Assembly (NCBI GenBank): GCA_965203315.1
Contig: OZ241857.1
Location: forward strand, 672,001 to 736,000
Direction: 5' to 3'
Source: Nitrosopumilus sp.
GTDB taxonomy: Archaea; Thermoproteota; Nitrososphaeria; Nitrososphaerales; Nitrosopumilaceae
DNA length: 64,000 nt
Shown here piece by piece: positions 1 to 49,060 of the stretch. The notes beneath the pieces are model-generated. The model made no database searches. It was not told where the DNA came from and was given only the letters and a program-made list of their open reading frames with translations. Both the position numbers and the translations under genes were made by a program. How positions within the stretch are numbered: the first letter of the stretch is position 1; the number at the start of each line of letters is the position of its first letter.

Positions 1-411
1 ATTTACACTAGCTTGTAGTTGATCCAGACTAGTTTGTATCTGTTTGATACGGGTCAACATCTCATCCATATTTGGTTTTTCTACAGACTTTACTTGAATA
101 CTAGCCAATTTTCTTCACTCTGGTATTGTTGCATGATACATAATTGCTTTGCGTGATGGTGATTTTGGTTAAAAATGAGTGCGATTGGAGGCACGATATG
201 GCCAAACCCGAATTCTGCCAGACGCTAATTCGAATCAGCGTACTAATCTAGACCAGAGGGTTTCGGTTTCGGATCTTTTCGGTTTACGTCGGATGATATT
301 TGACGAGGTTTTTTTCTGATTTTCCCGTAACCGTGCTATACCACACAAATCGAATAGATCCTCATAAAATCTAGGATCGATAATAAAAAAAAAGGCATGA
401 TTTGTATCGAG

Positions 412-8247: not shown

Positions 8248-9612
8248 TTGCTAGTTGAGAAAGCAAAAGGCATTTCAGAGTTTTTACAATCTTTTGAAGA
8301 GTCTGAACCAAACTTGGATGGTGAAAAAACGTTCAGAGAATTTGTTGCGAATCACATAAGAGAGGCTTCCAAGCATGCCGACTCGATAACTACTCTTCCA
8401 TCACAGATGCAAAATGAATATCTACAAGCTATGAGTGATTCGGTCTATTTTCGAGGAGAGCCTGACTGGCATCCACTTTTAAATTTGATCGAGCAGATAA
8501 TCAACGACTCTAAATACCATCCAGAATTGATCAATAGTGATATGACAAATCTTGCATCAGACATACTTGAAAATGGAATGCGTCGGAATGTTATCAGTTA
8601 CTCCTTAAAAGAACGAGTATGGGATATTATTCTAAAGATAGTTGAGATAGGAGACATGTACAATGAACCAGAACATGCCACATCTATGGCAGCTGAGTCT
8701 TTTAAACAATCAGTAAAAAATATCGGTGGAAAGTCATACCATGTGTTGTACATGTATTTGGTTTGGTGCAACGATAATAATGAACCAAATAACAGATTCA
8801 AAGATGTCAAACAAATCTTTGAAAGGTACCTAACAAATACCAAAAAATATACAATATCTAGGCATGCAGTATTTGGGTATTTTTTATCTAGATCGTTATA
8901 CATAAACAGACAGTGGACACTAGATGTGGTGATAAAGAAGATAGAATCAAGTTCATTATATTTCAAGATATCTTTTTGGCATTGTTATCTGTTTAATGAA
9001 AAAGAGAGAGAGTTGTTCATTACAATGAGATCATGGTACCGTGAATTTCTCACTAATCGTGAGATCATACATGTCATACATGACAATAGACTGTACAGGA
9101 AAACTATTGAACATGTTACAATAGCCTTTCTGTATGATGTAAAAGGTTTTGATGAAATATTGACAGAGTTTATCAATGATGCTGACGACAAGTCGTTAGA
9201 ATGCTGTTTCAACATTGCGTTTATCGCTTCAACAGACAAAGAGAATAGCATCAGAGTTAAACCTAAAATACATTTATTGTGGAAAGATAAGAGATTTGTA
9301 AACTCGTCCAACTTTGAAATCTGGTTCAAGGAGAGCATATTTGACAAAGATAACATTGATCTATTGTTGTATTATATTCAAAACCGAACTAGAGAGTTTC
9401 CAGACAGTGAATTCCCCATTGATCGACTTGCAGAATACATAGACGATTGTCCATTAAAGGTAGCACAATGTATAAAGATGCTTGTAGGCAGACATGTAGG
9501 TCTAACACACAAGACTATACAACCACTACTAGACAAACTATGCAAGAACAATAATCCAGAGATCATCAACATGTGTAGAGAGATTGACAAAAAGATCAAA
9601 ACTACAACTTGA
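8248..9612 (+). CDS. Helical-repeat hypothetical protein, probably the C-terminal part of a larger disrupted gene
   Basis: 454-aa ORF starting just after the IS66 TSD with a weak TTG start; no recognisable catalytic motif. Confidence 0.55.
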   Translation: MLVEKAKGISEFLQSFEESEPNLDGEKTFREFVANHIREASKHADSITTLPSQMQNEYLQAMSDSVYFRGEPDWHPLLNLIEQIINDSKYHPELINSDMTNLASDILENGMRRNVISYSLKERVWDIILKIVEIGDMYNEPEHATSMAAESFKQSVKNIGGKSYHVLYMYLVWCNDNNEPNNRFKDVKQIFERYLTNTKKYTISRHAVFGYFLSRSLYINRQWTLDVVIKKIESSSLYFKISFWHCYLFNEKERELFITMRSWYREFLTNREIIHVIHDNRLYRKTIEHVTIAFLYDVKGFDEILTEFINDADDKSLECCFNIAFIASTDKENSIRVKPKIHLLWKDKRFVNSSNFEIWFKESIFDKDNIDLLLYYIQNRTREFPDSEFPIDRLAEYIDDCPLKVAQCIKMLVGRHVGLTHKTIQPLLDKLCKNNNPEIINMCREIDKKIKTTT

Positions 9613-9785: not shown

Positions 9786-10019
9786 ATAGAATCTTGTAGT
9801 GATTTTTCTGTAACAGTCATCCCACATAAGCCACAAAGATCCCAACAGATGTATTTACCAAGAAGCAACCTCCAAAACAGTTGTTGCTGAAGAATCACGA
9901 GATAAGTATCATGTCAAATGAGGGGACGAAATACTTTCCGGATCCTACACAGCCCACACGAAACCGTCATGTACATAAAGGATTTATATCATAAATGGTA
10001 GATATTAGAGTGACTGGAA

Positions 10020-10430
10020 TTGACTAGTGTTCAAGTAAAGAGTACAGAAAAATCAGAGATGAATGAGATGTTAGCCAACATCAAACGACTACAGTCCATA
10101 GTAAGCAAGGTTCAAACCACAGCAACAGATTTGGCCCAAAGAGAAAAAACATGCATGGATAAAGTAAATTTAAAAATTATTGAAGTGTTTGATGTTGATT
10201 TTATAAAGCAGGTGTGTTATGAAAATGATGTTGAAGATAACGAAATAAAAATAGTTGTGATTTATGAACATAATGACTTTCAATACGCAGTTGACATAAT
10301 AGTTAATAGATTCGTACAATTTAAAAAATGTTTTAGGGGTATGTATCTAGAATTAATGTTTTTTCACACTACTGAAGTTAAACCAAACCGCCTAGAGGAT
10401 ACAACAACAGTTTTTAAAAGGAATATGTAA
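10020..10430 (+). CDS. Degenerate minimal-nucleotidyltransferase-like protein (module copy 1)
   Basis: Homologous to 15965-16438 and 35114-35599 (DFIKQVCYE, VIYEH, HTTEV-P, TTTVFKR); directly upstream of a HEPN gene. Confidence 0.65.
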   Translation: MTSVQVKSTEKSEMNEMLANIKRLQSIVSKVQTTATDLAQREKTCMDKVNLKIIEVFDVDFIKQVCYENDVEDNEIKIVVIYEHNDFQYAVDIIVNRFVQFKKCFRGMYLELMFFHTTEVKPNRLEDTTTVFKRNM

Positions 10431-10432: not shown

Positions 10433-10775
10433 ATGTGGCATTACGAAAAAAGTAATCGCAACATTGACACATATAATTACCTTCATAAAAAAAACTTCTG
10501 ATTATGTGGATTGGGAGGCAACCACTATATTTTATGCAGGATTGCATCTAGTTGATGATTATTTTGAGGATAGTAATATCAAAGTGCGAAAGAATCACAA
10601 GAAACGAAAGATAATGGTAGAGAAATATCTTTCAGATGTAGAGGCAGATTACGAACTTTTATTTACTCCAAGTATTCGTGCAAGATATGAAGACATACAG
10701 ATATCCAACAATGATGTAGATGTTGCACTACTTGCTTTTTCAAGGCTAAAATCAAAAATTCAGGCTCTTAGATAA
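10433..10775 (+). pseudogene. HEPN-domain toxin-like gene frameshifted in an A8 run (module copy 1)
   Basis: ATG 10433 gives MWHYEKS, like MSWYYEKS of copy 2; A7 at 10487-10494 would restore a 113-aa ORF with DWE..IFYA.LH and RARY. Confidence 0.7.
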
Positions 10776-15377: not shown

Positions 15378-15541
15378 GTTGAAAGTACTGTTTATCGACA
15401 AGCAACCGCTAAAAGGAGTAGAAATCGATGATTTGTAAGAAGAATGTTGCATCATGCAGTGGCCGAACAACTTTTTGATCCCACATTTTATGTCGTATCG
15501 GCTAACACTTATATATATTTCATGTCAAATACAATCAGCGG

Positions 15542-15961
15542 TTGTTTATGGAACAGAACTTGTCAAATGTTAAAGAGTTGTTCAAAAGTCCACTTGAAAA
15601 AATGATAACACAAACAGAGCGTGGGAATTTTCTAGGTTGTAGTTATATGGCAACTGATCTAATTAGAGCGTCAATATTGCATAATGATGCAGATATTGTG
15701 ATGATCTTTGAAGTTTTAGAGTCAGTATTTTATCAAACATCTCGTGTGACGCGGTCGTTTAACATCACAGACGAGGTTATGTCTAAATTAAAAAGTGATA
15801 TTATTATAAACCTGCGGCAACTATTGAGTGCATTAGAAAATAATGATCAGGAATCTATCTATGTTAGTCTAAGAGATATTCGTCATGCTGGTACCAAATT
15901 TCAATTCAACGCATTCCACACATTGCCAAAAAACAACTCGAGTAGAATTAGGGGGGACTGA
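15542..15961 (+). CDS. Unknown all-helical protein, gene 1 of HEPN module copy 2
   Basis: Full-length homolog at 34712-35113 (CS..A.DL, FNI.D, IY..LRD, KFQ). Confidence 0.7.
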   Translation: MFMEQNLSNVKELFKSPLEKMITQTERGNFLGCSYMATDLIRASILHNDADIVMIFEVLESVFYQTSRVTRSFNITDEVMSKLKSDIIINLRQLLSALENNDQESIYVSLRDIRHAGTKFQFNAFHTLPKNNSSRIRGD

Positions 15962-15964
15962 TTA

Positions 15965-16438
15965 TTGGTAATTATGTCAAAGCCGTATAGAGAAGATCAA
16001 GAAATCGAAGACGGATTAAGTTCATATGAATTCCGCTATAAACTAGCATCGGATTTAGAAGAACAAAGTACGAAAAGTACTTTGTCTGATGCAGAAATAG
16101 AAAAAATCGTAAAGATTATGAACCTACACGATACAATTACAAAACAACAAGAGTTCAACATGGACATAAAGTCAAAAGCTATTGAAATATTTGAGCCTCT
16201 TGATTTTGTAAAGCAAATTTGTTATGAGAGCGAATATACGAATAGTGATAATGGACTACTACTTGTAATCTATGAGCATGATGATTTTGAACATTCAATT
16301 AGAACAATATGTGATGGATTTTTATCGTTAGAACGTCAATTTCCAAACATGCATATGGATTTATTATTCGCACATACATCTGAAATCGGACCTGGTGGAT
16401 TAAATAATACTATCACTATTTTTAAAAGGAAAGATTAA
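15965..16438 (+). CDS. Degenerate MNT-like protein, gene 2 of module copy 2
   Basis: Three paralogs in the window; no GS/DxD motif. Confidence 0.65.
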   Translation: MVIMSKPYREDQEIEDGLSSYEFRYKLASDLEEQSTKSTLSDAEIEKIVKIMNLHDTITKQQEFNMDIKSKAIEIFEPLDFVKQICYESEYTNSDNGLLLVIYEHDDFEHSIRTICDGFLSLERQFPNMHMDLLFAHTSEIGPGGLNNTITIFKRKD

Positions 16439-16439
16439 C

Positions 16440-16784
16440 ATGTCCTGGTACTATGAAAAAAGTAAATATAATAAAGACACTGCTGATTACTTGTATGACA
16501 AAACACCAAATCACATGGATTGGGAAGTGGTCGTTATATTTTATGCAGCAATACATTTGATTAACTACAAGCTTGAAAAAAAGAACAAACCAGTACCAAA
16601 ACGACATGAAACACGACTTGAGAGTGTTGAGAGATTTTTCCCCGAGATAGCTAGTGAATATCATACTTTGTATAGCTTAAGCAGAGCTGCACGATACTGT
16701 AATATAAAAATATCTAAAAATAGCAGAGACTTTGCAAAAAAGTGCCTCTCGTCGATAGAATCACAATTAGAAAAACGTGGTTGA
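16440..16784 (+). CDS. HEPN-domain toxin-like protein, gene 3 of module copy 2
   Basis: DWEVVVIFYAAIH, PKRH..R, SRAARY. Confidence 0.75.
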   Translation: MSWYYEKSKYNKDTADYLYDKTPNHMDWEVVVIFYAAIHLINYKLEKKNKPVPKRHETRLESVERFFPEIASEYHTLYSLSRAARYCNIKISKNSRDFAKKCLSSIESQLEKRG

Positions 16785-16901
16785 AGAATCAGTTTATTCT
16801 AGTCATACCTATAAACAGTACTTTCAACTGTCTGCTCATTAACAAGCCGCAACAGCAATCTTTGGCGGAGGCCATTTTTCTCAAGAGTTAGATGCGATCT
16901 A

Positions 16902-17070
16902 GGTTCTTTTAACTTAGCAGGTGGTCGATAGTTTTCACGCAACATTCTCTAAAAATTTTACAAGTTATGAAAAATGTCTAGATCGCCCATTGTGGATTAT
17001 TACCATAAGCTGCATACAGTACGTTTCTTGAAATACTTGTATCTTAACCCCCCGATAAATTAAAAGAACC
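16902..17070. mobile_element. MITE family B copy 1 (IS6-type GGTTC ends)
   Basis: GGTTCTTTTAACTTA / TAAATTAAAAGAACC. Confidence 0.8.
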
Positions 17071-17082
17071 AAAAAATCAAAA

Positions 17083-18006
17083 CTATCTAAAGAAGACAAG
17101 AGTCAGATAGATCACATATCCAGCAACGAGACATGTACCTACAACTCGTCCTATAGCACCCGTCTTGAGTGCCATAAACAGTGATGCACTAAACAAGATC
17201 ATTATTGTATAATCCACATAGACATCTGATGATATCAATACACCTCCCAATAATGAACCCACACCCATAATCATCAATATATTGTAGATGTTGCTGCCGA
17301 TTATGTTACCGACGCCGATATCTGTATGTCCTCGACGTATAGCCATTATCGATGTGATGAGTTCAGGTAATGAAGTTCCGATTGCAATTACTGTCAGTCC
17401 GATGAGTTTCTCGCTCAAACCAAACGTTTCAGCAAGTATGACCGCATTATCGACAGTAAATATTGCACCTACATACAAAAAGCCGATACCCAAACCTACA
17501 AGACCTATTGGTTTTCCAAGTCCAGTATGTTCTGCAACATCAGTTATGTCTCGATGTCGCATTGCGCTGCGATACGTATAGTATCCAAATATCGCCAAAC
17601 CTGCAAGCAAGATTGCTCCATCATGTGTAGCGAGTTCACCATCCAGAGATACAACAACTAGCAGTATTGACACAGCAATCATCACAGGAATCTCACGACG
17701 TAACATTGTACGTTCTATTGCAAGAGGTATCAAGATACCAGTCACTCCTATTACCATTCCAATATTGGCTATATTGCTGCCTATCACATTTCCAAGAATT
17801 ATTGCACTGTGTTCACCAGCAGCTGCTATACTAGCTGCTAGTTCTGGCGTAGATGTACCATATGCTACTATGGTCATCCCTATTACCAGATTACTGATTC
17901 GAAACCTTTTAGCGATGGATGCACCACCACCAACTAGCCAATTTCCTCCAAAACACAACATAACGATACCCAGCAATGTAAGCGCAGCGCTGATTACTAC
18001 TTCCAC
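17083..18006 (-). CDS. Ca2+/Na+ antiporter (CaCA family, YrbG-like)
   Basis: Alpha repeats GTSTPEL...GNVIGSN and GTSLPEL...GNIIGSN; about 10 TM segments. Confidence 0.93.
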   Translation of the reverse strand: MEVVISAALTLLGIVMLCFGGNWLVGGGASIAKRFRISNLVIGMTIVAYGTSTPELAASIAAAGEHSAIILGNVIGSNIANIGMVIGVTGILIPLAIERTMLRREIPVMIAVSILLVVVSLDGELATHDGAILLAGLAIFGYYTYRSAMRHRDITDVAEHTGLGKPIGLVGLGIGFLYVGAIFTVDNAVILAETFGLSEKLIGLTVIAIGTSLPELITSIMAIRRGHTDIGVGNIIGSNIYNILMIMGVGSLLGGVLISSDVYVDYTIMILFSASLFMALKTGAIGRVVGTCLVAGYVIYLTLVFFR

Positions 18007-18051
18007 AACATTACCGTTGATCTAGACATTTTAAATTATAGTGATCGATTC

Positions 18052-18214
18052 GGTTCAGTTGAGGGGGGTTGAGATCGTTATGACGTTATCTCAAAGAACG
18101 CACAATATCTGACTCAACAGTAGCAATTTACGATGGTCAGTGAGGCCGTTTCCATATTTTGCAAAGTGTCGAGAATTTTGTGCAGATGCCAACCCCCATC
18201 AATTGAATATAACC
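18052..18214. mobile_element. MITE family C copy 1 (degenerate)
   Basis: Homologous to 46330-46501, 48885-49060 and 50397-50570. Confidence 0.75.
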
Positions 18215-18332
18215 TAGTGATCTTGATCACAAACTAGTAGACCACATATCTTGTATCTTTTGTCTATAAAATGTAGCGACTTGGTCGATTCACAGCTAGT
18301 TACAAGTATAGTGGGTATGCCATAGTGTGTAT

Positions 18333-18463
18333 ACTAGTCGTGAACATAATAGTTCCTAGTGTTGTGTCATAATTTGGCGTCATCTGTTCGGTCAGATGTA
18401 AATTCCGTCTCCGATATCACATGTGCGAGAGTAAACAAGAAGACAGTTCCGTTCGTGATTATA
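18333..18463. mobile_element. MITE family D copy 1 (TATAGTCRYGAAC-type ends)
   Basis: Homologous to copies at 33010, 38725 and 56544. Confidence 0.7.
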
Positions 18464-19600: not shown

Positions 19601-19794
19601 CGATTTATCATGTATGGTTTGTATCTAAAAAGATTACTGATTATGGTTCTGTAAAGTTGTAGGGACCTGAGATGTTAAACTCTAGATCTCAAGGATCAAC
19701 CAAAATCATACTGAGAAAACATAGTTGTGTCGATCTCTTGTAGAGACTCGCATTCTGAATTATGGTCTTCCACTTGTTAAGTCTATCTATTATA

Positions 19795-20256
19795 GGTTCT
19801 GTATAATCTTCGAGACCTGACATTTTGATATAAAAACCATTAAAGATAGATAGTATTCTAGTTATCATAATAATGCCCACACTAGATTGGATCGGCAAGT
19901 CAGCTGTTAAAGACCATCATAAGACGATCCCCTATCACCTACTAGAAAAAGATGAGAAACTATCCATTGGGAATACCAAAAACATGTTGATACAGGGTGA
20001 TAATTTACTAGCACTCAAGAGTCTCTTACCGTACTATAAGAACAAGATCAAATGCGTGTACATAGATCCACCATACAACACAGGCAATGAATCATGGATA
20101 TACAACGACAAGGTAAACTCACCCACCATCCAAAGATGGATTGACAAGGTGGTTGGCAAACCAGACGAAGATCTATCCATGCATGACAAGTGGCTCTGCA
20201 TGATGTATCCTAGACTATCTCTATTACGAGAGTTGATGTCAGATGATGGTGTGATA
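19795..20256. repeat. 462-bp inverted repeat, left arm (partner 26226-26687)
   Basis: No mismatch found by eye; covers the TIR, the promoter region and the first 128 mod codons. Confidence 0.9.
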
Positions 20257-21243
20257 ATAATCCACATCGATGAACATGAACAAGCAATATTACATTTGTT
20301 AATGTTTGAAATATTTCATAAAAATAACCATCTGGGAACATTGATATGGAATAAGAAAAACCCTAAAGGTGACTCTAAAAAGATTTCATATCAACATGAG
20401 GAAATAGTAATTTTTGCAAAAAATGCTGTTCATTTTGTAGAAAAACATGATTTAAAACGACCAAAAGAACATGCACAAGAAATGATAAAAAAAGCAAAAT
20501 ACTTTTTTTCAAAACTAGATCAAAGCAAAATACCAAACGATATCTTGTACATTACAAAAAAATACAATATTCCATATGACTGGAGTCAAAAGTTTTCTAA
20601 AACTGTAACACTTGGTGACATAAATAAAGAATATTCAATATGGTTGAAAGATCAAAATTTTTCTGCAGGTGAAAAAGCATACTCACATATATCTGAAATA
20701 GGGAGGGTGTACAGACTGGTATCAATGGCATGGCCGAACAAGAAGAAAGCTCCACGGGAATATTTTGTACCATTAATTCACCCAATAACCAAAAAACCAT
20801 GTCCAGTTCCAAAACGTGGTTGGAGATATTCACAGAAAACTATGAATGAACTTTTGCAAACAGATCAAATTCAGTTTGGTAAAGATCATACTACTCAACC
20901 AAACAGAGTATATTTTCTGAATGAAAATATGAATGAAAACATATCTTCGATACTGAATTATGGTGGTAGTGATGATATGATTCTAGAAAAAATGGGTATT
21001 ATTTTTCCTAACTCAAAACCAATAGTAGTTGCAAAGACACTATTGAAGTGGTTTACAGATAATCATGGATTGGTACTAGATTCTTTTGCTGGGTCAGGTA
21101 CTACTGCCCAGGCAGTCATGGAACTAAACAAAGAGGATGGAGGTGATCGTCAATTCATTCTGATAGAAATGGAACATCAAATTACCAAAGACGTGATTCA
21201 TAAGAGGCTAACAAGGGTTATTGATGATTTGTGTTCTACATAA
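19873..21243 (+). CDS. mod: Type III Mod-like adenine DNA methyltransferase (allele 1, lacks the C-terminal domain)
   Basis: IQGDNL, YIDPPYNTG, TRD, LDSFAGSGTT. Confidence 0.9.
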   Translation: MPTLDWIGKSAVKDHHKTIPYHLLEKDEKLSIGNTKNMLIQGDNLLALKSLLPYYKNKIKCVYIDPPYNTGNESWIYNDKVNSPTIQRWIDKVVGKPDEDLSMHDKWLCMMYPRLSLLRELMSDDGVIIIHIDEHEQAILHLLMFEIFHKNNHLGTLIWNKKNPKGDSKKISYQHEEIVIFAKNAVHFVEKHDLKRPKEHAQEMIKKAKYFFSKLDQSKIPNDILYITKKYNIPYDWSQKFSKTVTLGDINKEYSIWLKDQNFSAGEKAYSHISEIGRVYRLVSMAWPNKKKAPREYFVPLIHPITKKPCPVPKRGWRYSQKTMNELLQTDQIQFGKDHTTQPNRVYFLNENMNENISSILNYGGSDDMILEKMGIIFPNSKPIVVAKTLLKWFTDNHGLVLDSFAGSGTTAQAVMELNKEDGGDRQFILIEMEHQITKDVIHKRLTRVIDDLCST

Positions 21244-22742: not shown

Positions 22743-25046
22743 TCAATCTGAAGACACAACAGAGTTATTTATTTCATCAATAAGTTCATTTATTTCTTCC
22801 TTGAATATGATCTTAGTTTTATAGTTTTCACCTGCAAGTGTAGATAAAATATCTAACATTTTTTGTTTATACACGGTCTTCTCATTACCCTTTAGGTGTT
22901 CACCCTTGTACTCTATAATATAGTAATGATCATTATTTGTTTTTATTATAAAATCTGGATAAATTAAATTTGGCTTCCAACCCATGACGTAAAATGCATT
23001 TTCGTTTTTAACAGGATTTCTATACCACCACTTTACTGTATCCAAACTGTCAATTTTTGTAGCAAAATCCTCTTCTTCCTTATTCATTCTTTCGAGATTG
23101 TTAAATAGATGTTTTGTAAATGTATTCTCTTGTGGATTTGTTAATGGCATATCATTTGATAACGATCTATACATACATACTAAATTACCTTTCTCTAAAT
23201 GTTGCATAAACTTCTTTTTGGACTCATCTTGCTCATACATGTTTATGCTGTTGTTTATTTTTTCAATAACAATTCTGATGTTTTTAGACAATTCTTTTAT
23301 TTTTTCTTTTTCAGATTTAGTTATATCGTTTTGAATATATCTATCTACTATATCATTTATATATTTTGTCATGTCTTTAGAACTATATCGCGCTCTCCTT
23401 ACCTCTCTTCTAAGTTTAGTCATAAGTTTATCTTTTGTGTAAGAATCAGAATCATCAGGAAATAGAGTTTTTTGTACAGTGGATTTTATTCCTGATTCTG
23501 TTACATCAATTTCTCGAACTTCAGATATACTTGTCAATTGCCCAATATTGATTATATCTGGGTTCGGTAGCATATCTGGCAATAAATCTTCATATTCTAA
23601 CATATGTTTAATTGGTTCAGTGATTGTAATACAAGGTAATTTAATATCATTATCATCAATAACTTGTCTAGTTTGTGTTACATCTTTCTTCTTTTTTGAA
23701 GGTATCATATCTTTTTTATCATATCCATTTCTTTCTAATTCTGATTCTAATTCTTTTACTATTTGATCCATATTAATCGATGATGTAAACACATAAGCAC
23801 AATTCAGTGCATCAATGGGTTTTCTCTTTTGTTTTGGCATTCGTAATATTCTTCCTATTATTTGTTCACCTGCTGTTCTTGACTTTGTGTTCATTATAGA
23901 TACTAGGACATATGCGAATGGATTATCCCAACCTTCTGCTAACGCTCTTACAGTTATGATGTATCTAATTGGACTACTTTTTGAGTTCAGATTCTTCCCT
24001 TTTAGATCATCGTCTTTACTCGTCTTAATGGCTATCTGTTCTTCAGGAATTTTATGGTTTTTCAGTAAATAATTTTTAACCTGGTTGGTATCAATTACTT
24101 TTTCTGATTCTTTATTTTGTTCTGCTTGAAATAGTATGATTGGACGTATGTATTCTCCAGTAATTTTTTTCAATTTATTACACTCTCTTTCTAGAAAATG
24201 TCTCTTTTGAATACCAAGATCAATTACTCTTTCCCAATCAGGTTCGTTAGTGTGGATGATGGGAAGTTTTACCATCCCTTCATTTTTTAGTTCTACAGCA
24301 TTTACATTCACTAGTACATTGGATTCTTTACCCAATTCATTTCTTGGAGTAGCTGTAAACTCTATTACAAAACTTGGATTAAAGTTTTGAATCATCTCGT
24401 ATGATAGATGTGTTTTTGTGTGATGTGATTCATCTAAAATAACTATTGGATGATATAATTTTATTACTTCATGCAAAGATGGTGTAACAGTAGAGGTTAA
24501 TCCTTGAAAATGATCCATTAATGAACCATTTTCTTTAAAGACATTCTTTTTAGACATCTTTTTTGGAGTATCTTCTGTCCTAAATACAGCAAATGTCGCC
24601 ACTATGATACATAAATTATTCTTAATATCAGATCTTTTAATCGATAGTGCTTCTTCTATACTAAATACTTTGATGTCACTAAAAGATTCGTTTAACGTAG
24701 CATAATAAATATCTCCAAAATTACATAATTTTTTAATTGTTTGATATAATATGGCATCGGTGGGAACTAACCACAAAACTAAACCAACATCATCTATACG
24801 ACTAAGATATTCTCTATGAATGGTTTTGATGGATTCACATGCTACTAGTGTTTTACCGCCTCCTGTTGGTATCTTTATACATATGGAAGGGGCGTCTATG
24901 TTGTGGTTGTTATATTTTGTTTTTGTTACTACATAAAACGCAGTATCTTTAGGATCTCCATCTTTATCCAAACTATGTATTTTGGTAATATAATTAACCA
25001 AGTCTTCAATAGATTTGGATTGATATTTTTTAAGAATGTTCGTCAT
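22743..25046 (-). CDS. res: Type III restriction subunit Res (SF2 helicase plus PD-(D/E)xK nuclease)
   Basis: PTGGGKT, DESHH, FTATP, AEGWD, QIIGRILR, YPDF...IEYKG; ATGA overlap with mod stop. Confidence 0.92.
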   Translation of the reverse strand: MTNILKKYQSKSIEDLVNYITKIHSLDKDGDPKDTAFYVVTKTKYNNHNIDAPSICIKIPTGGGKTLVACESIKTIHREYLSRIDDVGLVLWLVPTDAILYQTIKKLCNFGDIYYATLNESFSDIKVFSIEEALSIKRSDIKNNLCIIVATFAVFRTEDTPKKMSKKNVFKENGSLMDHFQGLTSTVTPSLHEVIKLYHPIVILDESHHTKTHLSYEMIQNFNPSFVIEFTATPRNELGKESNVLVNVNAVELKNEGMVKLPIIHTNEPDWERVIDLGIQKRHFLERECNKLKKITGEYIRPIILFQAEQNKESEKVIDTNQVKNYLLKNHKIPEEQIAIKTSKDDDLKGKNLNSKSSPIRYIITVRALAEGWDNPFAYVLVSIMNTKSRTAGEQIIGRILRMPKQKRKPIDALNCAYVFTSSINMDQIVKELESELERNGYDKKDMIPSKKKKDVTQTRQVIDDNDIKLPCITITEPIKHMLEYEDLLPDMLPNPDIINIGQLTSISEVREIDVTESGIKSTVQKTLFPDDSDSYTKDKLMTKLRREVRRARYSSKDMTKYINDIVDRYIQNDITKSEKEKIKELSKNIRIVIEKINNSINMYEQDESKKKFMQHLEKGNLVCMYRSLSNDMPLTNPQENTFTKHLFNNLERMNKEEEDFATKIDSLDTVKWWYRNPVKNENAFYVMGWKPNLIYPDFIIKTNNDHYYIIEYKGEHLKGNEKTVYKQKMLDILSTLAGENYKTKIIFKEEINELIDEINNSVVSSD

Positions 25047-26609
25047 ATTTTCACCTCATATGGTATTTGTTTGAAGATGCAACGCCATCGTTCTAGTTTT
25101 TTGTGTGATATACTACACAAATCTGAATAGACTATTTTCTGTACATTTTTGTCCATCTCTTTTAGATGTTTGAAAGTAAAGATATTCTTAGATTTGGGTT
25201 TGTATATTAGATGAATTTGAACTCCATCATTTGTTGTACCCAACAGAGTACCCTTTATCCGATGTATTGTCTTATTGGTCTCTGTCAAGTAAATGTGGTG
25301 TGCTAGATTAGTAAAAGTACATTTTGTTATATTGCCATCACAGTCAAAGAGTTCATTACCCAGCGTGTAAAAGTCAAATCCAAATTGATCATTGTCTTGG
25401 GGGGGGGGCGGTCTCAGCTTTTAGTTTTTTTGTCACGATATCTAATCTTTTGTGAGTAACTGATCTTACGACATTTGGATCCATCTCTATTAAAATGAAT
25501 TTTCTACTACCTTTATCTTTTTTGTTTAATTCCATTACAGTTTGTGCTGTAGTACCAGACCCTACAAAAGAGTCTAGAATGATGTCGTTATGTGATGTAG
25601 AAGCAAGTACCAAATCATGTATCAATTTAACTGGTTTTACTGTATAAAATGGTACATCTCTACCTTCTTTGATATTGAATAATTTTTTAATTTCACTTTT
25701 TGCATCATTATTAGACGTATTATCGATTATACTGTCAAATTTAATCTTTCCGTCATTATCAAATTCATAATATTTTTTATACACTTGATACTCTCCATTT
25801 TGTTTCTTTTTGAATAATATCCTCTTATCTTTTAGTAATTCTTTAAATTTTGGTTTTGCAACTAACCATTGAGTTTTAATTTCCTTCCCATCTGGAAGTT
25901 TAATTGGATAAACAAGGGTCGGTCTACTTTCTAAATTTGATTTTAATGGTCTAATGTAATACCTACCTCTACTGTTAATGAATTCGTCATCATAAACAAA
26001 TTTAGATTTGTCTTTTTCAGGGCGTGGTATCAAAAATTCGGTTACTTTAGATTTATTTTTTCCAAATACCAATATATATTCATGTAGATCAACAAAATGG
26101 TTTGAATGTTTACCTCCAGTATATTTTTTCTTCCAAACTAATTCTGCAATAAAGTTCCTTGCTCCAAATATCTCGTCACATAGTATCTTGAGATGTGCTT
26201 GTTCGTTGTCATCTATTGAGATGAATATCACACCATCATCTGACATCAACTCTCGTAATAGAGATAGTCTAGGATACATCATGCAGAGCCACTTGTCATG
26301 CATGGATAGATCTTCGTCTGGTTTGCCAACCACCTTGTCAATCCATCTTTGGATGGTGGGTGAGTTTACCTTGTCGTTGTATATCCATGATTCATTGCCT
26401 GTGTTGTATGGTGGATCTATGTACACGCATTTGATCTTGTTCTTATAGTACGGTAAGAGACTCTTGAGTGCTAGTAAATTATCACCCTGTATCAACATGT
26501 TTTTGGTATTCCCAATGGATAGTTTCTCATCTTTTTCTAGTAGGTGATAGGGGATCGTCTTATGATGGTCTTTAACAGCTGACTTGCCGATCCAATCTAG
26601 TGTGGGCAT
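25043..26609 (-). CDS. mod: Type III Mod methyltransferase (allele 2), frameshifted at a C10 tract
   Basis: DPPY and DSFVGSGTT; C9 or C12 at 25399-25408 continues into GFDFYTLGNELFD...HIYLTET...FKQIPYEVKI, giving 521 aa with C9. Confidence 0.88.
25399..25408. repeat. G10/C10 homopolymer in mod (candidate phase-variation tract)
   Basis: Sits exactly at the frameshift; very rare run in this AT-rich DNA. Confidence 0.8.
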
Positions 26610-26687
26610 TATTATGATAACTAGAATACTATCTATCTTTAATGGTTTTTATATCAAAATGTCAGGTCTCGAAGATTATACAGAACC
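26226..26687. repeat. 462-bp inverted repeat, right arm
   Basis: Reverse complement of 19795-20256. Confidence 0.9.
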
Positions 26688-26937
26688 CTATTATAATCAA
26701 TGCTTCTTCAGATAGAGTCTTGCCGACCAACGCTTCATGTTTCTTTGTACAATTGTAGAGTGTTCTGAATACACCTATCAAACTGGTATCATCTTTCTTG
26801 AGACTCCTAAATGCGACTTTACGATCTCGAATTGTACCGTTCAATCGTTCCATTTTGTTATTGTTGTCTCTTAACTTCTTACCAGTTAGATGGATATGTT
26901 TGATGTGTCGAGTCTCTTTGCCGAATACACGTTTACT

Positions 26938-29098: not shown

Positions 29099-29498
29099 AT
29101 CAATTAGATTAAATATATTGTATTGCTAGTCATACTATACTGTGGTGGGCAATATGTCTAAAATCCGGAACCGTAACTCCAGTTCTAATGACAGTTGCCA
29201 TTCTTCCATCACAGTATAGTTACATACTTGGTACACTAGCGATCTATATGGTAAGCAGTATCATGCAAGGTGAGGTAAAGCCAACACGAGAGTCAAGCGA
29301 TCAGATGGCTGTCTGAGAGTAGAATTGCTTTCGAGTTCGTATTTGTGTGTAAAAATTACATACAGCACATGTAGAAGACTAGGCTACGATATCAAATGTT
29401 CAAAAGACATAGTCAATACGGCAAACAACTAGAGAACGCCATCTTGTCGCTGTACAGCACATGACATTAAAAAATTTACCAACCACTGCATTCTGCCA

Positions 29499-29812
29499 GG
29501 TTCTTTTAACTTAACAGGGGGTCTATAGTTTTCATGCAACATTCTCTAAAAATTTTACAAGTTATAAAAAATGGTTATAACACCAATTGTAGATTATTAG
29601 ACTGTATGCATATTTCTTACACCATACGCACATTTTAAAGTACAATAAAACGTAGGTGTAATTTCTAGAGGCAAATTGATTCATTGTTATCGTGTTTGAT
29701 GATTGGACATGGGCACTCAATAATACGCATACAGTCTATTGTTGTTTTAAGTTGCATATAGTGCGTTTCTTGAAATACCAGCATCATAACCCCCCAATAA
29801 GTTAAAAGAACC
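29499..29812. mobile_element. MITE family B copy 2 containing a nested family A MITE
   Basis: Family B TIRs at both ends; interior interrupted at 29599-29737. Confidence 0.8.
29599..29737. mobile_element. MITE family A copy 6 (nested)
   Basis: Family A TIRs flanked by TA. Confidence 0.85.
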
Positions 29813-33009: not shown

Positions 33010-33154
33010 TAGTGGCTCGAAATGAACAATCGCCTAATTTTTTCCTAGTGTTTAGTATCACAATTTAGTGTTATCTGTTAGGCCAGAGATAAATTCCGTC
33101 TCGGACATCACATATGCGGGAGTAAACAAGAAAACAATTCCGTTCGTGACTATA
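33010..33154. mobile_element. MITE family D copy 2
   Basis: Family D internal homology; right end GTTCGTGACTATA. Confidence 0.65.
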
Positions 33155-33210
33155 GAATCTTCAAGATCATTTATATACAAATCTGAAGCAATAGGATAGG
33201 TTATTTCATT

Positions 33211-33732
33211 ATGAATAAAAAATGCGAGATATGTTTTGAAGCTTTTACGCCAAGAAAAAGAGTCTACGAACAAAGAACATGTGGTGCCAAACCATGTCAA
33301 GACGAACTTGCAAGAAGATATAACAAGCTACAAACAGAAAAGAGATCCAAAGTTCCTAAATCTGTAAATTGCATAATATGTGGTGCCTCGTTCAAACCCT
33401 TCAGCCGAAAGCAAAATACGTGTAGCGATCAATGTAAGAAGCAAAAGAGACGATTAGGTTATGTGTATAAAGAGATGGGAGACCATCAATGTCCATATTG
33501 CAATAAAGTAACAAAAAAGAAGAGACATGATCAGCAAACATGTGGAAGCAAATTATGTCAAGCACAGCACGAAACAATGATGAATAGACAGAGAGAAGCC
33601 AAAAAACCAAAGAAACCTTTACTGGAGAGAAAATGCACAGTATGTAAAAAATTATTTCGAACACATCTTCCACAAACAGTTACCTGTGGTACTAGATTAT
33701 GTAAAAAAAGCAGAAAGGTAAATGGTACATAA
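33211..33732 (+). CDS. Multi-Zn-finger protein (four CxxC...TC units); probable N-terminal part of a frameshifted gene
   Basis: CEIC..F...TCG..C repeats; one extra A in the A7 run near 33703-33709 fuses it to the next ORF. Confidence 0.65.
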   Translation: MNKKCEICFEAFTPRKRVYEQRTCGAKPCQDELARRYNKLQTEKRSKVPKSVNCIICGASFKPFSRKQNTCSDQCKKQKRRLGYVYKEMGDHQCPYCNKVTKKKRHDQQTCGSKLCQAQHETMMNRQREAKKPKKPLLERKCTVCKKLFRTHLPQTVTCGTRLCKKSRKVNGT

Positions 33733-33785
33733 ACAGATCACTTGAAAAAGTAGAGAGAGATTATCAGAAAGGACAACAAAAAACT

Positions 33786-34448
33786 ATGAACCTTAAAAAA
33801 AGTGCATTGAAGGTTTATGGCAATCAATGTGTGAAATGTCATTTAAAGGATTGGAGATATTTAGAGTTTGATCATATAAATAATGATGGAAAGACTGATC
33901 GTGATAATGGCCTAGTAACAAGACGCCTATACGAATCACTCAGTAAAAACAAACGACGAAATGATATACAAATATTATGCAGGTACTGTAATCAGCGAAA
34001 AACAAGAACCATTGCATGGGATTGGAGTGCTAGAAAGAGTAGAAATGAATTAAGACGAAAGTCAAGGGAGCAGTTAATACGCCTTGTATGTTTGAGATAT
34101 TATTCTGGTAAAAAGATACCTGAATGTGCTAATCCTGAATGTCGTCAAACAAATGTAAGATTTCTACAACTGGATCACATAGAGGGAGATGGTAAACGAG
34201 AACGAAAGAAATATGGTGTTGCTAGAAAATTTTTCACCTATTTAATACTAAATAAATTTCCGTCAAATTTACAAGTCTTATGTTCGTATTGTAATGCTTC
34301 AAAAAATAACAAACATGTTGAATATACTAGACCAAACCTAGAAATAACATTATCGATATTGGGCAAGTGGTATTACACATATTTAGAATCAAGAAGAAAA
34401 TTAACAAAAGAAGAGTTAAAAAATAATATACTGTATGCATATTATTGA
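33786..34448 (+). CDS. Tandem HNH endonuclease domains
   Basis: C..C...LEFDHINNDG...ILCRYCN and C...C...LQLDHIEGDG...VLCSYCN; stop codon supplied by a MITE. Confidence 0.8.
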   Translation: MNLKKSALKVYGNQCVKCHLKDWRYLEFDHINNDGKTDRDNGLVTRRLYESLSKNKRRNDIQILCRYCNQRKTRTIAWDWSARKSRNELRRKSREQLIRLVCLRYYSGKKIPECANPECRQTNVRFLQLDHIEGDGKRERKKYGVARKFFTYLILNKFPSNLQVLCSYCNASKNNKHVEYTRPNLEITLSILGKWYYTYLESRRKLTKEELKNNILYAYY

Positions 34449-34568: not shown

Positions 34569-34711
34569 AGTATGCAAACTAGTGATCAAGATCACAGGCT
34601 TATTGGATCTCAAGTCCGATTTTACGATCTTTCGTACCTAAATTTCCCAGCTCCCGAAGATTACACAGAACCCGAAAGCCCCACATAACATTCATAAAGA
34701 TATGTAGACAA

Positions 34712-35113
34712 ATGTTAGTAATGATAGATAGTAAAACAGTGTTTGAAAAGTCGCTTGTTCGCATATTAGAACATCTAGATGATTTTGAAAGTTGTTCCCA
34801 CATAGCAAATGATCTAAGTAATGCCGCACTAATGCATGAAAATCCTGATGCGGTCATAGTTGCTGAAACTTTGAATCACATATTTTTCCAATTAGATATG
34901 ATTGTATCTGATTTTAATATTGGTGATGATGAGATAAAAACATTAAAAAATGATTTATCTACAAATATAAGATTACTGTCAGATTCGTTTAAAAATAACA
35001 ATTTTGAAAAAATTTATATAAATTTAAGAGACGCACATTATGTTTGGTCTAAATTTCAAAGTCGGGTATTTCAGACGTTAAAAGAAAAAAACCGTAAAGG
35101 AGAGAGTGACTAG
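34712..35113 (+). CDS. Unknown all-helical protein, gene 1 of HEPN module copy 3
   Basis: Homolog of 15542-15961. Confidence 0.7.
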   Translation: MLVMIDSKTVFEKSLVRILEHLDDFESCSHIANDLSNAALMHENPDAVIVAETLNHIFFQLDMIVSDFNIGDDEIKTLKNDLSTNIRLLSDSFKNNNFEKIYINLRDAHYVWSKFQSRVFQTLKEKNRKGESD

Positions 35114-35599
35114 TTGTCATCGATAACTCCCAAGTATATTGGTGAAGTTCAACGACAGTATAATATGTCAAGACAAAAAACTCATGGAAATAACTCCAAA
35201 CTGTACGAAGATATCGAGAATGTAAAGTTAGAAATTGAGAAAATCAAGAAAGAGCTTGAAGCATCAATTGAGAAAATACAAAAAGAGTTGTCATCCAAGC
35301 CCATAGACAAACAGAAAACAAGCATGGAGAATGTAAAACCAAAGATTATTGAAATGTTCGAAGGTATTGATTTTGTAAAGCACATATGTTATGAAAACGA
35401 CACTCGTGGTGACGAAATAACTCTGATTGTAATTTACGAACACGACAATTCTATAAAGTCTCGCGACATAATTTTTAAACAGTTTTTTAAACTAGAAGAC
35501 ATATTTCCAGATATTTATATGGAAGTGAGAATTTTACATACTACTGAAGTCGGCCCATACAGATTAAACGACACGACGACCGTTTTTAAGAGGGAGTGA
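35114..35599 (+). CDS. Degenerate MNT-like protein with coiled coil, gene 2 of module copy 3
   Basis: DFVKHICYE, VIYEH, HTTEVGP, TTTVFKR. Confidence 0.65.
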   Translation: MSSITPKYIGEVQRQYNMSRQKTHGNNSKLYEDIENVKLEIEKIKKELEASIEKIQKELSSKPIDKQKTSMENVKPKIIEMFEGIDFVKHICYENDTRGDEITLIVIYEHDNSIKSRDIIFKQFFKLEDIFPDIYMEVRILHTTEVGPYRLNDTTTVFKRE

Positions 35600-35955
35600 G
35601 TTTGCCGAGTTACTATCAAAAAAGCATTGCTAACAAAAAAAAAGCTTTTGAACATCTCAACCAAAAAACCCCAACACATATTGAATGGGAAGTGGTCATT
35701 ATATTTTATGCTGCATTGCATCTAGTCAACGATTATTTTTATAAAAATGGAATCGAGTTTGTAAAAAGACATGGTGGGAGAATGAAAGCGATAAAAAAAG
35801 ATTCAAAAATATGTGACTTGTATGAAGACTATCGAATAATGTTTGAGAGAAGTAATGATGCTCGATATGAAGAAAATGTACAAATAACAGAGGAAGATAG
35901 AGACGATATGAAAAGGCGACTTTCAAAAATTGAGTCAAAATTATCTGTTGTGTAA
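35596..35955 (+). CDS. HEPN-domain toxin-like protein, gene 3 of module copy 3
   Basis: EWEVVIIFYAALH, KRH..R, RSNDARY; GTGA overlap with gene 2. Confidence 0.75.
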   Translation: MSLPSYYQKSIANKKKAFEHLNQKTPTHIEWEVVIIFYAALHLVNDYFYKNGIEFVKRHGGRMKAIKKDSKICDLYEDYRIMFERSNDARYEENVQITEEDRDDMKRRLSKIESKLSVV

Positions 35956-36070
35956 GACCGACTCGGTCATAACAGTCATTGGTGTACATCCTCAGATTAT
36001 TGCGGTTTTAAAAAAAGATAACAAGATCCACAGTCCAAGACCCACACCTATAACAAGTTTGTGTTATTCA

Positions 36071-36246
36071 GGTTCTTTTAACTTATTAGTGGGTTAAGAT
36101 GCTAGTATTTCAAGAAACGCCCTTTATGCAACTTACAGTAATAATCGGCAATGGGCAATCTAACCATTTTTCATAACTTGTAAAATTTTTAGAGAGTATT
36201 GCGTGAAAACTATCGACCCCCCCCCCCCCGTTAAGTTAAAAGAACC
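36071..36246. mobile_element. MITE family B copy 3
   Basis: Family B TIRs, opposite orientation, poly-C tract inside. Confidence 0.8.
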
Positions 36247-36386: not shown

Positions 36387-37175
36387 ATGCTTAATAAATA
36401 CTCGAACATAGTATTTGAAGTGTATTTATCGTATATTGACACATCTGGAGGTCCTGAGTATAGTGATCCTGAAAATTTTGTTGTGGCGTCAGTAATTATC
36501 CATGATACGTCTTGGCAAAATATCACAAAAGAGATTGGTCAAATAAAGTCCAAATACTTTCCAGATTTACATTCGGATAATGTAGAGTTCCATGTAAAGG
36601 ATATGTTGAATCACCGTGGTATCTATAAAGAAATATCTCTTAATGCCACATATTCTATACTAGATGATATTTTTGATGCTATATCTGCAAAAGATACGCA
36701 TCTACATGTTGTTGGAACTATACTTGACAAAAGAAGAAGAGGACTAGATCTTGAAGTATTTGGCTATGTACCTGTATTTGAGAGATTCAATCGTTATTTA
36801 TCTCAAATAAACCGACATTTACAAAAAGATAGTGAATCTATAGAATATGGGATGGCGATTATAGATTCTGCTGGAAGCAGAGATCAACAACTTCGATCTA
36901 AACTATCTCCAATACTGAGTAGTGGTACATCGTACTCGAATTTTAATTATTTGATTAATAGTATACTGTTTGCAGATTCACGATGGGATGATCTAATACA
37001 GATAGCAGATTGCGTAGCGTACTGTATACGTAAACATCATAGAACAAACAATACTGATGACATACATTTACAACACTGGGAAAAATATTACTCCATGATT
37101 ACAGACAAGTTTTATTCAAGGGATGGAGAACATGACGGTTATGGATTGAAAATATTCACAGGAGGGGGGGAGTAA
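36387..37175 (+). CDS. DUF3800 domain protein (RNase H-like)
   Basis: YIDTSG (usually DESG), EFH, IQIADCVAY, GLKIF; true start may be GTG 36420. Confidence 0.82.
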   Translation: MLNKYSNIVFEVYLSYIDTSGGPEYSDPENFVVASVIIHDTSWQNITKEIGQIKSKYFPDLHSDNVEFHVKDMLNHRGIYKEISLNATYSILDDIFDAISAKDTHLHVVGTILDKRRRGLDLEVFGYVPVFERFNRYLSQINRHLQKDSESIEYGMAIIDSAGSRDQQLRSKLSPILSSGTSYSNFNYLINSILFADSRWDDLIQIADCVAYCIRKHHRTNNTDDIHLQHWEKYYSMITDKFYSRDGEHDGYGLKIFTGGGE

Positions 37176-38572: not shown

Positions 38573-38724
38573 TCTTCCGACGTGTAGTCACGTTTAGACA
38601 TGTTGACTATATGTTTGATTTTTGTGAAATATGACACCAACCTAAATTGGACAGATTGATCCTTTAGACCCAGTGCATTTGTAAATTTTACGAGGTTGAA
38701 TACAACAAGGATTTTAACTGATTG

Positions 38725-38855
38725 TATAGCCACGAACTGAATTGTTTTCTTGATTACTCTCGCACATGTGGTCAGAGACGGAATTTACCTCTGGCAGAAC
38801 AGCTAACTCCAAATTGTGACACAACACTAGAAAAATTATTATGTTCGCGACCATA
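38725..38855. mobile_element. MITE family D copy 3, directly upstream of nurA
   Basis: Reverse-orientation family D homolog. Confidence 0.7.
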
Positions 38856-41230: not shown

Positions 41231-42373
41231 ATGTTATTTTCACACATATCTGATACACATCTAGGGATGGAACAGTACGGCCTAGAAGAGCGTTCAGAAG
41301 ACATGTATCGTTCCTTCAATCAAGCCATAGACATATCGATAAAAGATCATGTAGATTTTGTGATCTTTGCAGGAGACATCTTTCATACGCCCAGTCCAAG
41401 TGGAAGGGCAGTAGTCATGATGGCAAATGCCCTAAAGAGACTGAAGGATAATAAAATCGAGTCATACTTTATTCTAGGAGATCATGACATCAGTAGATTG
41501 AGAGAGACGCCTATCCACTTTGTGTATAGCAATCTCAGATTTGCAAACTATGTAGGTCAAGGTGAGCCGATAATGCACAAAGATGTCATGATAGCAGGAT
41601 TGGACAAGATTCGTAGATCAGAGATTCATCAGTATGAAGATAAATTTGCAGCTCTTGGCAAAAAAGCACTAGAGCACAACGGTCACAAGATAATGATAAT
41701 GCATCAAGGCGTAACAGAGTTTAACAAGTTTGCAGGCGAGATTCAGTCTACAGAGATGCCTGCCAACTTTACATACTATGCGATGGGACACTTGCACGAC
41801 AGAGATATCAGATACTTTGATCATCTGGCAGGACCTATAGCATATCCAGGCTCTACAGAGATATCTCCCAATGAGAAGATAGGAGATGTTGAAAAGGGAT
41901 TCTTTATTGTGGACATATCCACAAAAGAGGTCAAACCAGACTGGAATAAACTCGACATCAGACCACAGTTTGTATTCGATACCGAATATGACAATCTTGA
42001 AGAGACGATAACAGAGATTTCTGAAAAGATTCAAGGTCTAGAGACCAAACCAATAGTAGAGATAAAGATTCAAGGTCAGAGTATCAAAGCAGATCAGATG
42101 CACAACATATTGGCCAAGATAGACCAAGATGTACTGTGTTGTGTTCCACGTGTTGTGTCTGAACAGATCGATAGATCCCAAGTATTATCTAGTAGGCCGT
42201 CTGCCATCGATGACGAGTTGCTACGTCTATCCACAGACATACTAGAGTCTAAAGAGTTGGCCGAGTTTGCAATAAACCGACTGTTACCATCTCTGATATC
42301 AGGAGTCTCGAGTCATGGTGCAGATGCTGTATGGGAAGAGTATGTGAGGTTCAAAGATGATAAAGTCGATTGA
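41231..42373 (+). CDS. mre11: Mre11 nuclease
   Basis: HISDTHLG, AGDIF, GDHD, MHQG, MGHLH, YPGS. Confidence 0.95.
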   Translation: MLFSHISDTHLGMEQYGLEERSEDMYRSFNQAIDISIKDHVDFVIFAGDIFHTPSPSGRAVVMMANALKRLKDNKIESYFILGDHDISRLRETPIHFVYSNLRFANYVGQGEPIMHKDVMIAGLDKIRRSEIHQYEDKFAALGKKALEHNGHKIMIMHQGVTEFNKFAGEIQSTEMPANFTYYAMGHLHDRDIRYFDHLAGPIAYPGSTEISPNEKIGDVEKGFFIVDISTKEVKPDWNKLDIRPQFVFDTEYDNLEETITEISEKIQGLETKPIVEIKIQGQSIKADQMHNILAKIDQDVLCCVPRVVSEQIDRSQVLSSRPSAIDDELLRLSTDILESKELAEFAINRLLPSLISGVSSHGADAVWEEYVRFKDDKVD

Positions 42374-46329: not shown

Positions 46330-46501
46330 GGTTCTGTTCAATTGACAGGGGTTGGCATTTTCTGCACAAAATTCTCGAAACTTTGCAAAATATGGAAACG
46401 GTCTCACATCGACTAGCGTAAATTGTTGCTGTTTTGAATCTCATACTGTATGTTCTGAGATAACGTCATAACGATCTCAACCCCGTTAATTGAACAGAAC
46501 C
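46330..46501. mobile_element. MITE family C copy 2
   Basis: TIR GGTTCTGTTCAATT/AATTGAACAGAACC. Confidence 0.85.
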
Positions 46502-46537
46502 GATCTCATAAATATGTCCAGAGATGATAAACTCTGT

Positions 46538-48884: not shown

Positions 48885-49060
48885 GGTTTTGTTCAATTGA
48901 CGGGAGTTGAGATCATGATAACGTTATCTCAAAAGACGCACAGTATGTGACTCAAAACAACAGCAATTTACGATAGCAGATATGAAACCATTTCCATATT
49001 TTGTAAAATTTTTCGAGAATTTTGTGCAGAAAAGGCTAACCACGTTAATTGAACAGAACC
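48885..49060. mobile_element. MITE family C copy 3
   Basis: Family C TIRs. Confidence 0.8.

Follow-up and report, generated by a model that had tools for sequence, protein, structure and literature searches.

A small gene module recurs in a 64,000-nt stretch of Nitrosopumilus sp. DNA (contig OZ241857.1; hereafter the window), in which an MNT-fold gene that has lost its catalytic motif (gene 2) precedes a class II HEPN gene (gene 3) and, in two copies, follows a gene for a helical protein of an unnamed family (gene 1). The pseudo-MNT/HEPN pair is well supported, and this two-gene core is better supported than the role of gene 1. The feature is best described as a variant of the HEPN-MNT systems with an unnamed accessory gene 1 family, whose link to the pair is plausible and comes from one genome. 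The explanation that we favour, with about an even chance of being correct, is a class II HEPN RNase that is bound and inactivated by the pseudo-MNT, with gene 1 as an optional, co-expressed regulator.

Copies of the module and their surroundings

The three-gene repeats are real, and all ORFs of a preliminary description made from the sequence were found where it had placed them, with the exception of the HEPN start in copy A. Copies B (15542-16784) and C (34712-35955) each consist of three tightly packed genes on the forward strand. In copy B, the ORF of gene 1 (15542-15961; its start may also be ATG 15548 or TTG 15560) is separated by 3 nt from gene 2 (15965-16438), which is followed after 1 nt by gene 3 (16440-16784). 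In copy C, gene 1 (34712-35113, recognised as an ORF, by tblastn and by profile; start possibly ATG 34721) directly abuts gene 2 (35114-35599; gap 0 nt), whose stop overlaps the HEPN gene (35596-35955; ORF and motifs) in a GTGA. Copy A, also on the forward strand, comprises two genes only: a short-type gene 2 (10020-10430; ORF, profile and heptad test) without gene 1 upstream and, after a gap of 2 nt, a frameshifted HEPN gene (10433-10775; tblastn and three-frame translation). The preliminary description counted three copies, all of which exist, and missed a fourth of the two-gene type, copy D, which runs out of the window at its left edge. It is represented by the 5' end of a short-type gene 2 on the reverse strand (108..1, start at 108), again without gene 1 upstream, with 47% identity to residues 1-34 of copy A (tblastn) and a profile E-value of 2e-6. 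The order of an MNT-fold gene followed by HEPN, with coupled junctions, is found in all three complete copies. A TATA-like box was recognised by eye upstream of copy B gene 1 (15509-15517, forward strand), as were similar AT boxes at 34691-34698 (copy C) and 9983-9989 (copy A).

Profile searches of all 1880 stop-free segments in the six frames of the window returned two gene 1, four gene 2 and three gene 3 segments above threshold, placing gene 1 in two of the four copies (B and C). Within the window, tblastn aligned gene 1 of copies B and C at 34% identity (E 2e-22), the gene 2 copies at 42-45% (E 1e-21 to 1e-28) and the gene 3 copies at 36-41% (E 1e-16 to 1e-20), and codon alignments of all three genes gave pairwise identities of 33-42%. 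Together with the gaps of 0-3 nt or the GTGA overlap, these values agree with the earlier account of diverged copies that are tightly packed or overlapping. In all genes, identity at second codon positions (0.63-0.78) exceeds that at third positions (0.39-0.51) and synonymous changes are numerous, with different codons at 18 of 44 identical residues in gene 1; gene 1, as well as the other two genes, therefore resembles an old duplicate that has been conserved at the protein level.

The HEPN gene of copy A is broken as assembled. Its start, previously given as 10464, is ATG 10433. tblastn splits the gene into two segments in different frames, and the frame changes within the A8 run at 10487-10494; the same break is seen in the database protein P0016 (89 aa). 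Since one of the six A/T runs of at least 8 nt in the window lies within the intact HEPN gene of copy C, a pseudogene, a homopolymer error and a slippage site are all possible.

The window is archaeal by its genes for a TATA-binding protein, L15e and CofG/CofH, all scoring above the NCBIfam cut-offs. The modules, with a GC content of 31-33% versus 40-42% for housekeeping genes, lie among restriction-modification genes of types III, IIG and II and transposases of IS6, IS66 and IS110. No neighbour outside the module is common to copies B and C. Copy C is preceded by a Cys-rich zinc-finger-like ORF and a double-HNH protein (33211-34448) and followed by a DUF3800 protein (36387-37175), and upstream of copy A lies a 454-aa ORF (8248-9612, forward strand) with no credible match in Pfam, NCBIfam or PADLOC. 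Elsewhere, a 503-aa protein (47042-48553, reverse strand) matches the PADLOC candidate PDC-S01 (E 7e-33), and a Rad50-like gene (42357-45236) contains internal tandem repeats of 75 bp (43201-43436) and 66 bp (43983-44347), with a further 66-bp tandem at 48577-48797. The type III restriction locus (19873-21243, forward; 22743-25046 and 25389-26609, reverse) holds two methyltransferase genes that face each other. Their 5' 500 bp are inverted repeats of 97.8% identity (19788-20286 and 26196-26695) and their remainders differ; an inversion between these repeats would swap the specificity regions behind the two promoters.

A miniature inverted-repeat element of about 143 bp, with terminal inverted repeats, is present in 10 copies of 77-93% identity (at 3936, 4803, 9644, 11046, 26937, 29598, 34426, 46855, 50912 and 58147), two of which flank module A in inverted orientation. 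Three further small repeat families were found, at 16901-17084, 29498-29812 and 36056-36246; at 18043-18215, 46330-46505, 48885-49061 and 50396-50570; and at 18335-18463, 33035-33159, 38720-38855 and 56544-56680. Two of the three have GGTT...AACC ends, which we take to resemble IS6-family termini, and the 143-bp element splits one copy. Mobilisation of the module by flanking miniature repeats was considered and rejected: 21 such elements occur over 64 kb, and the element common to the downstream sides of B and C is oppositely oriented.

The HEPN gene and its degenerate MNT partner

The assignment of gene 3 to HEPN is upheld by profile links, by a phage relative above the PF05168 cut-off and by motifs. 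Among the three window copies, one (copy B) matched the Pfam HEPN family PF05168, weakly (E 0.025; 15.2 bits, below the cut-off of 22). Because the relative from Thermus phage Tsatsa passes this cut-off (22.5 bits) and is matched by the gene 3 profile at 47 bits, membership of the window proteins in PF05168 would follow by transitivity. The profile scores the Dolichospermum plasmid and Tsatsa proteins at 47-48 bits, and a Microcystis phage relative was reached with an hhalign probability of 96.5%. A protein-set search gave seven matches, three of them (P0017, P0019 and P0020) from outside the window. P0017, a HEPN of 114 aa with 57% identity to copy C, lists the same longest contig as the window proteins; it is probably another copy in this genome and perhaps the partner of copy D.

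The sequence motifs of genes 2 and 3 are as the preliminary description gave them. W..FY..H and ARY are present in all nine HEPN sequences examined (in copy B as W..FY..H, KRH and SxxARY), and a middle histidine is kept in seven, being lost in P0019 and P0020. RX4HXY occurs in none of the nine, which also have no histidine 4-6 residues after the arginine. These motifs fit the HEPN-T type, for which an alternative site has been proposed (PMC3710099, section 6), as well as class II of Yao et al. (2020; PMC7641770), and on this basis gene 3 is a class II (HEPN-T-like) HEPN with putative RNase activity. For class II (RY-type) proteins, the main text of PMC7641770 notes a conserved tyrosine only and reports that no biochemistry was done, and neither this text nor that of PMC11586414 contains toxicity or RNase data. 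AMPylation was demonstrated on the tyrosine of class I RX4HXY and not on that of class II (PMC7641770); the previous statement that MNT-HEPN pairs act by AMPylating the RY tyrosine is overstated for class II.

Gene 2 encodes a standalone protein of 136-161 aa. A word-index search returned 11 matches, namely the three window copies and eight others, five of which list the same longest contig; this suggests a multi-copy expansion in at least one other genome. The model of the copy C protein (pLDDT 80) consists of a long helix (6-60) followed by an alpha-beta-beta-alpha-beta-beta domain, which matches Legionella MNT best in a VIA search of 48,161 chains (Z 9.3, rmsd 3.3, 87 residues over positions 70-161). 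The top matches were 8xeh_E and 8xeo_A (rmsd 3.1-3.3 and 86-87 residues over the two VIA passes), followed by Sulfolobus 2rff (8.6), MafI2 (8.2), 1ylq (8.1), 1wot (7.7) and Shewanella MntA (7.6). Foldseek placed MafI2, third in VIA, at rank 1 and gave E 9e-4 to the MNT 7ae2_B. The VIA Z-scores are of moderate size, and values of 7.0-7.8 were also obtained with acyl-CoA ligase C-terminal and CzrB domains. Nevertheless, because MNT or pol-beta nucleotidyltransferases account for eight of the 11 best VIA rows and the gene occupies the usual place of an MNT, the predicted pol-beta/MNT-like fold, already expected in the preliminary description, is supported; for copy B, the fold is assigned from the copy C model.

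The absence of a GS/DxD motif noted before was seen throughout: GSX10DXD is present in none of the 12 aligned rows (11 distinct sequences). With catalytic positions mapped from DSSP and the published motif, Glu-Asn stands at the expected Gly-Ser, the loop between strands 1 and 2 has six residues, and the three aspartate positions are acidic in 5, 0 and 10 of the 12 rows, the second being Lys or Arg in eight. The family has invariant polar residues of its own (D86, E94 and H110). Since changes as conservative as D-to-E or GS-to-AT already abolish AMPylation (PMC7641770), as do conservative changes of GSX10DXD in PMC11586414, canonical AMPylation by a protein that has lost this motif appears very unlikely, and gene 2 most likely neutralises its partner through binding.

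The N-terminal part of gene 2 is variable and falls into two types. The short type (copies A and D, P0008 and P0010-12) has no aromatic residue among its first 30 residues and forms a clean coiled coil in all five sequences tested, including copy A, which has no aromatic arm. The long type (copies B and C, P0006, P0007 and P0009) has two to five aromatics in this region and weaker heptads, as in copy C, where the helix or coiled coil of about residues 6-60 precedes the degenerate MNT fold of about 70-161 (heptad test, 2 of 200 shuffles). Within the window, gene 1 is confined to copies with the long type (two of two long versus none of two short). As the two types separate on the tree, with a weak support of 57, this correlation may represent a single event.

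Three loci with external relatives of gene 3 (L002-L004, from the Dolichospermum plasmid, Thermus phage Tsatsa and the Microcystis phage) each carry a gene of 126-168 aa directly upstream of HEPN that lacks GSX10DXD. These genes appear MNT-like by eye but have no detectable homology to gene 2 (hhalign probability 0.1-0.5%). A phage integrase adjoins two of the three loci, and gene 1 was found at none of them (profile test on the ORFs of L002 and L003; ORF list for L004). At the Tsatsa locus (L003, 1245-3466), a 103-aa gene, the 126-aa gene, the related HEPN and the integrase form an overlapping block, so that the three-gene layout recurs with another gene in the first position; this first gene (Tsatsa_35) gave no Pfam match and is presumably DUF3467-like. 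Several plasmid and phage tblastn searches returned nothing or chance matches only, and one match (H4, E 0.2) was set aside. Likewise, a genome scan with the gene 2 alignment yielded 61 pattern matches and one locus (L001), a chance match in an unrelated ORF, and thus no gene 1 or gene 2 locus from outside this genome.

Other searches gave little for the module as a whole. None of the three genes had a credible match in PADLOC, where three weak matches fell on the coiled-coil copy of gene 2. In the ESM Atlas, the best values were 0.77 for gene 1 and 0.83 for the gene 2 core, both below 0.9. PDB sequence searches gave nothing significant; 9XBC and 9XBD, which were weak matches, may belong to further related work.

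The helical first gene

Gene 1 is a real, conserved and unnamed helical family, a conclusion supported by both sequence and model. When 1.84 billion representatives were searched with HMMER, 148 proteins reached E<=0.001 and 50 of these 1e-10, and 127 of the 148 are 110-155 aa long; a match of 2085 aa is probably due to chance. A word-index search is insensitive for this gene, recovering only the two window copies and none of the 146 non-window HMMER matches, so that the sizes of the gene 1 family (HMMER) and of the gene 2 and 3 families (word index) are not comparable. The copy B protein is modelled as a five-helix bundle (pLDDT 86; helices 7-26, 30-46, 50-72, 77-99 and 103-126) without strands. 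In agreement with the earlier remark that its family could not be recognised, an alignment of 119 members, with fragments and long forms left out, had no credible match to Pfam, NCBIfam or PHROGs, no family listed there matching more than four members. A PDB sequence search with the family gave nothing under E 0.02, and Foldseek with the model gave no match at E<=0.001 in PDB or BFVD.

The closest fold in the VIA search was CheA P1 (Z 9.6, rmsd 3.5, 114 residues), below the level of about 13 that is meaningful for helical bundles, and the likeness is within the range of a common arrangement. A conserved phospho-accepting histidine is absent, the highest histidine fraction in any column of the 119 sequences being 0.10. 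Nor was there support for gene 1 as a dead HEPN: the first 50 VIA rows contained no HEPN, and a profile comparison with gene 3 gave no match. The conserved polar residues (E 96%, E 83%, R 90%, T 90% and Q 87%) suggest a candidate binding surface; copy C deviates from the family at three conserved polar positions. A tree of the first 60 of the 127 normal-length members, built with a quick method, was poorly resolved, with P0021 and P0022 as near relatives.

In two long members, P0100 and P0134, the gene 1 part is followed by a coiled coil (0 and 6 of 200 shuffles) and by a C-terminal region that is unrelated to gene 2 and that, by eye, presumably resembles a winged helix and an archaeal VapB-type tail. 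These proteins may be read-through artefacts; if genuine, they hint that gene 1 could serve as a plug-in third component ahead of different antitoxins. Four other relatives (P0056, P0088, P0115 and P0148) have a common Cys-containing N-terminal extension before the usual start, which suggests conserved upstream sequence or a small metal-binding addition.

A tripartite system, as proposed initially, is a hypothesis drawn from two copies in one genome: gene 1 accompanies the pair in two of the four window copies and is missing from copies A and D and from the three external HEPN loci. The predicted complex of copy C gene 2 and two HEPN chains with gene 1 as partner scored 0.00 in both runs (mark 0.32), without folded controls, and weighs neither way.

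Relation to known systems and possible function

Among the closest known systems are the class II HEPN/MNT pairs (PF05168 + PF01909), which are among the commonest archaeal toxin-antitoxin-like modules (Makarova et al., 2009, PMC2701414; Yao et al., 2020, PMC7641770). As in these, an MNT-fold gene lies upstream of a PF05168-like HEPN that lacks RX4H and has a conserved tyrosine and an upstream histidine. The published MNTs keep GSX10DXD (PF01909), whereas gene 2 has lost this motif and acquired a coiled coil at its N-terminus; a third gene is present in two copies. Type VII HepT/MntA systems (Shewanella 5YEP/6M6V, Aphanizomenon 7AE2 and Legionella 8XEH/8XEO) provide the best structural matches to the gene 2 model and the same gene order; however, they oligo-AMPylate the RX4HXY tyrosine, and going by the sequences, with GSX10DXD and RX4HXY both absent, the module falls outside type VII. 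MafI2 (8HHJ; PMC9970974) shares a small alpha/beta fold (Z 8.2 over 90 residues) and inhibits an RNase by 1:1 binding, but its toxin is a polymorphic toxin of the RNase A fold rather than a HEPN, identity is 7-10%, and the paper does not call it MNT-like in its main text. The nearest described case is the inactive nucleotidyltransferase of the HINPO systems, in which a HEPN gene is linked to a catalytically inactive pol-beta nucleotidyltransferase domain (10.64898/2026.10.19.760177); there, the domain lies within ParA and is accompanied by an ORC/CDC6 ATPase, neither of which is among the flanking ORFs here. The main texts considered, which also include PMC13000451 and PMC7848895, describe neither a standalone catalytically dead MNT paired with class II HEPN nor this three-gene form; the HEPN alignments of PMC3710099 or the bioRxiv supplement could include the subfamily.

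In the favoured explanation, the module would be a chromosomal, repeatedly duplicated, toxin-antitoxin-like system derived from class II HEPN-MNT. Gene 3 belongs to the HEPN family and would act as a dimer that probably cleaves RNA through the proposed alternative HEPN-T site, formed by the ARY arginine and an upstream histidine. Gene 2, predicted to keep the MNT fold, has lost the G-loop and metal-binding aspartates and, as this motif loss makes canonical AMPylation very unlikely, would most likely block the HEPN by stoichiometric binding in type II style, for which MafI2 offers a precedent of similar fold acting on an RNase (PMC9970974). The coiled coil of gene 2 would oligomerise the complex. 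Gene 1 would be an optional, co-transcribed accessory subunit, as the pair also exists without it, and would most likely regulate antitoxin availability by binding to the longer aromatic N-terminal arm of the B and C antitoxins, as the two-versus-two correlation suggests. If stress or infection led to the antitoxin being lost or displaced, the RNase would be freed and growth arrested.

The rival explanations partly overlap with this one and with each other. The first, which we regard as possible and doubtful, is an obligate tripartite sensor in which gene 1 is chaperone-like, holds the antitoxin arm until competition by a viral protein releases it, and is also employed before other archaeal antitoxin-toxin pairs. 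Toxin-antitoxin-chaperone (TAC) systems such as HigBAC and CmdTAC likewise consist of three small genes whose third component could gate the antitoxin, and their chaperones read aromatic patterns (10.1101/2024.02.24.581848), which may be compared with the aromatics of the long-type arm. In copies B and C, order and tight junctions are kept despite 33-40% identity of all three genes, and the 148-match gene 1 family has a conserved polar patch, no conserved histidine, and members that run on into a coiled coil and another C-terminal region. Against this, such fusions make up 2-3 of the 148 and could be artefacts of read-through, two-gene copies occur, and the gene 1 linkage comes from the copies of this genome. 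Moreover, the third gene of TAC systems is SecB-like, whereas gene 1 is an all-helical five-helix bundle placed first, and the variable arm of gene 2 is N-terminal. SecB has an alpha/beta fold, and no SecB family was among the listed Pfam and NCBIfam matches (first 25 families) of the 119 gene 1 members. A broader version, similarly tentative, would make gene 1 a widespread helical-bundle sensor or chaperone for the coiled-coil antitoxins of several unrelated archaeal toxin modules, a non-SecB counterpart of TAC. In this module it would control a class II HEPN RNase bound to a pseudo-nucleotidyltransferase, which would be a type VII antitoxin reverted to type II binding.

Less likely again is a hitch-hiking gene 1: as a mobile family of its own, it would have inserted in front of a single ancestral pair and later been duplicated with it into B and C. 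Transposases and small repeats are densely spread over the window, and gene 1 is missing from copies A and D and from all three external HEPN loci. However, it has been retained with junctions of 0-3 nt and the ribosome-binding-like site at the gene 1/gene 2 boundary over divergence to about 35% identity, while the unlinked neighbours differ between B and C. Still lower in probability, and in our view unlikely, is a class II HEPN that is not a toxin and forms with the pseudo-MNT an RNA- or nucleotide-binding regulatory complex that causes no growth arrest. The missing RX4H motif and the loss of the middle histidine in P0019 and P0020 would suit this reading, as would the lack of validation of class II toxicity in the main text of PMC7641770 and the binding role proposed for the inactive nucleotidyltransferase of HINPO (10.64898/2026.10.19.760177). 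Conversely, W, FY..H, Y and ARY are invariant across archaeal, cyanobacterial, Thermus and NC10 sequences, and the toxin-antitoxin-like order, patchy multi-copy spread, low GC content and integrase-adjacent phage positions argue for a toxin. Finally, gene 2 might have kept enzymatic activity through a remodelled active site (E94, E109-H110, E137 and E145) and modify the RY tyrosine or another target, which we consider improbable. These residues are invariant or nearly so and the tyrosine is invariant in gene 3, but in 11 distinct sequences that are close relatives (36-50%) such conservation says little; in addition, about five residues are missing from the G-loop, and Lys prevails at the second aspartate position.

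The module represents a natural lineage in which MNT catalysis has most likely been lost and the RY tyrosine is fixed, which would separate binding from AMPylation, and the fixation of this tyrosine implies that it need not be an AMP acceptor only. As versions with two and with three genes coexist in one genome, the third gene comes with an internal comparison. Should gene 1 be a modular sensor, this would name about 147 uncharacterised protein clusters and would offer an entry to archaeal antiviral sensing.
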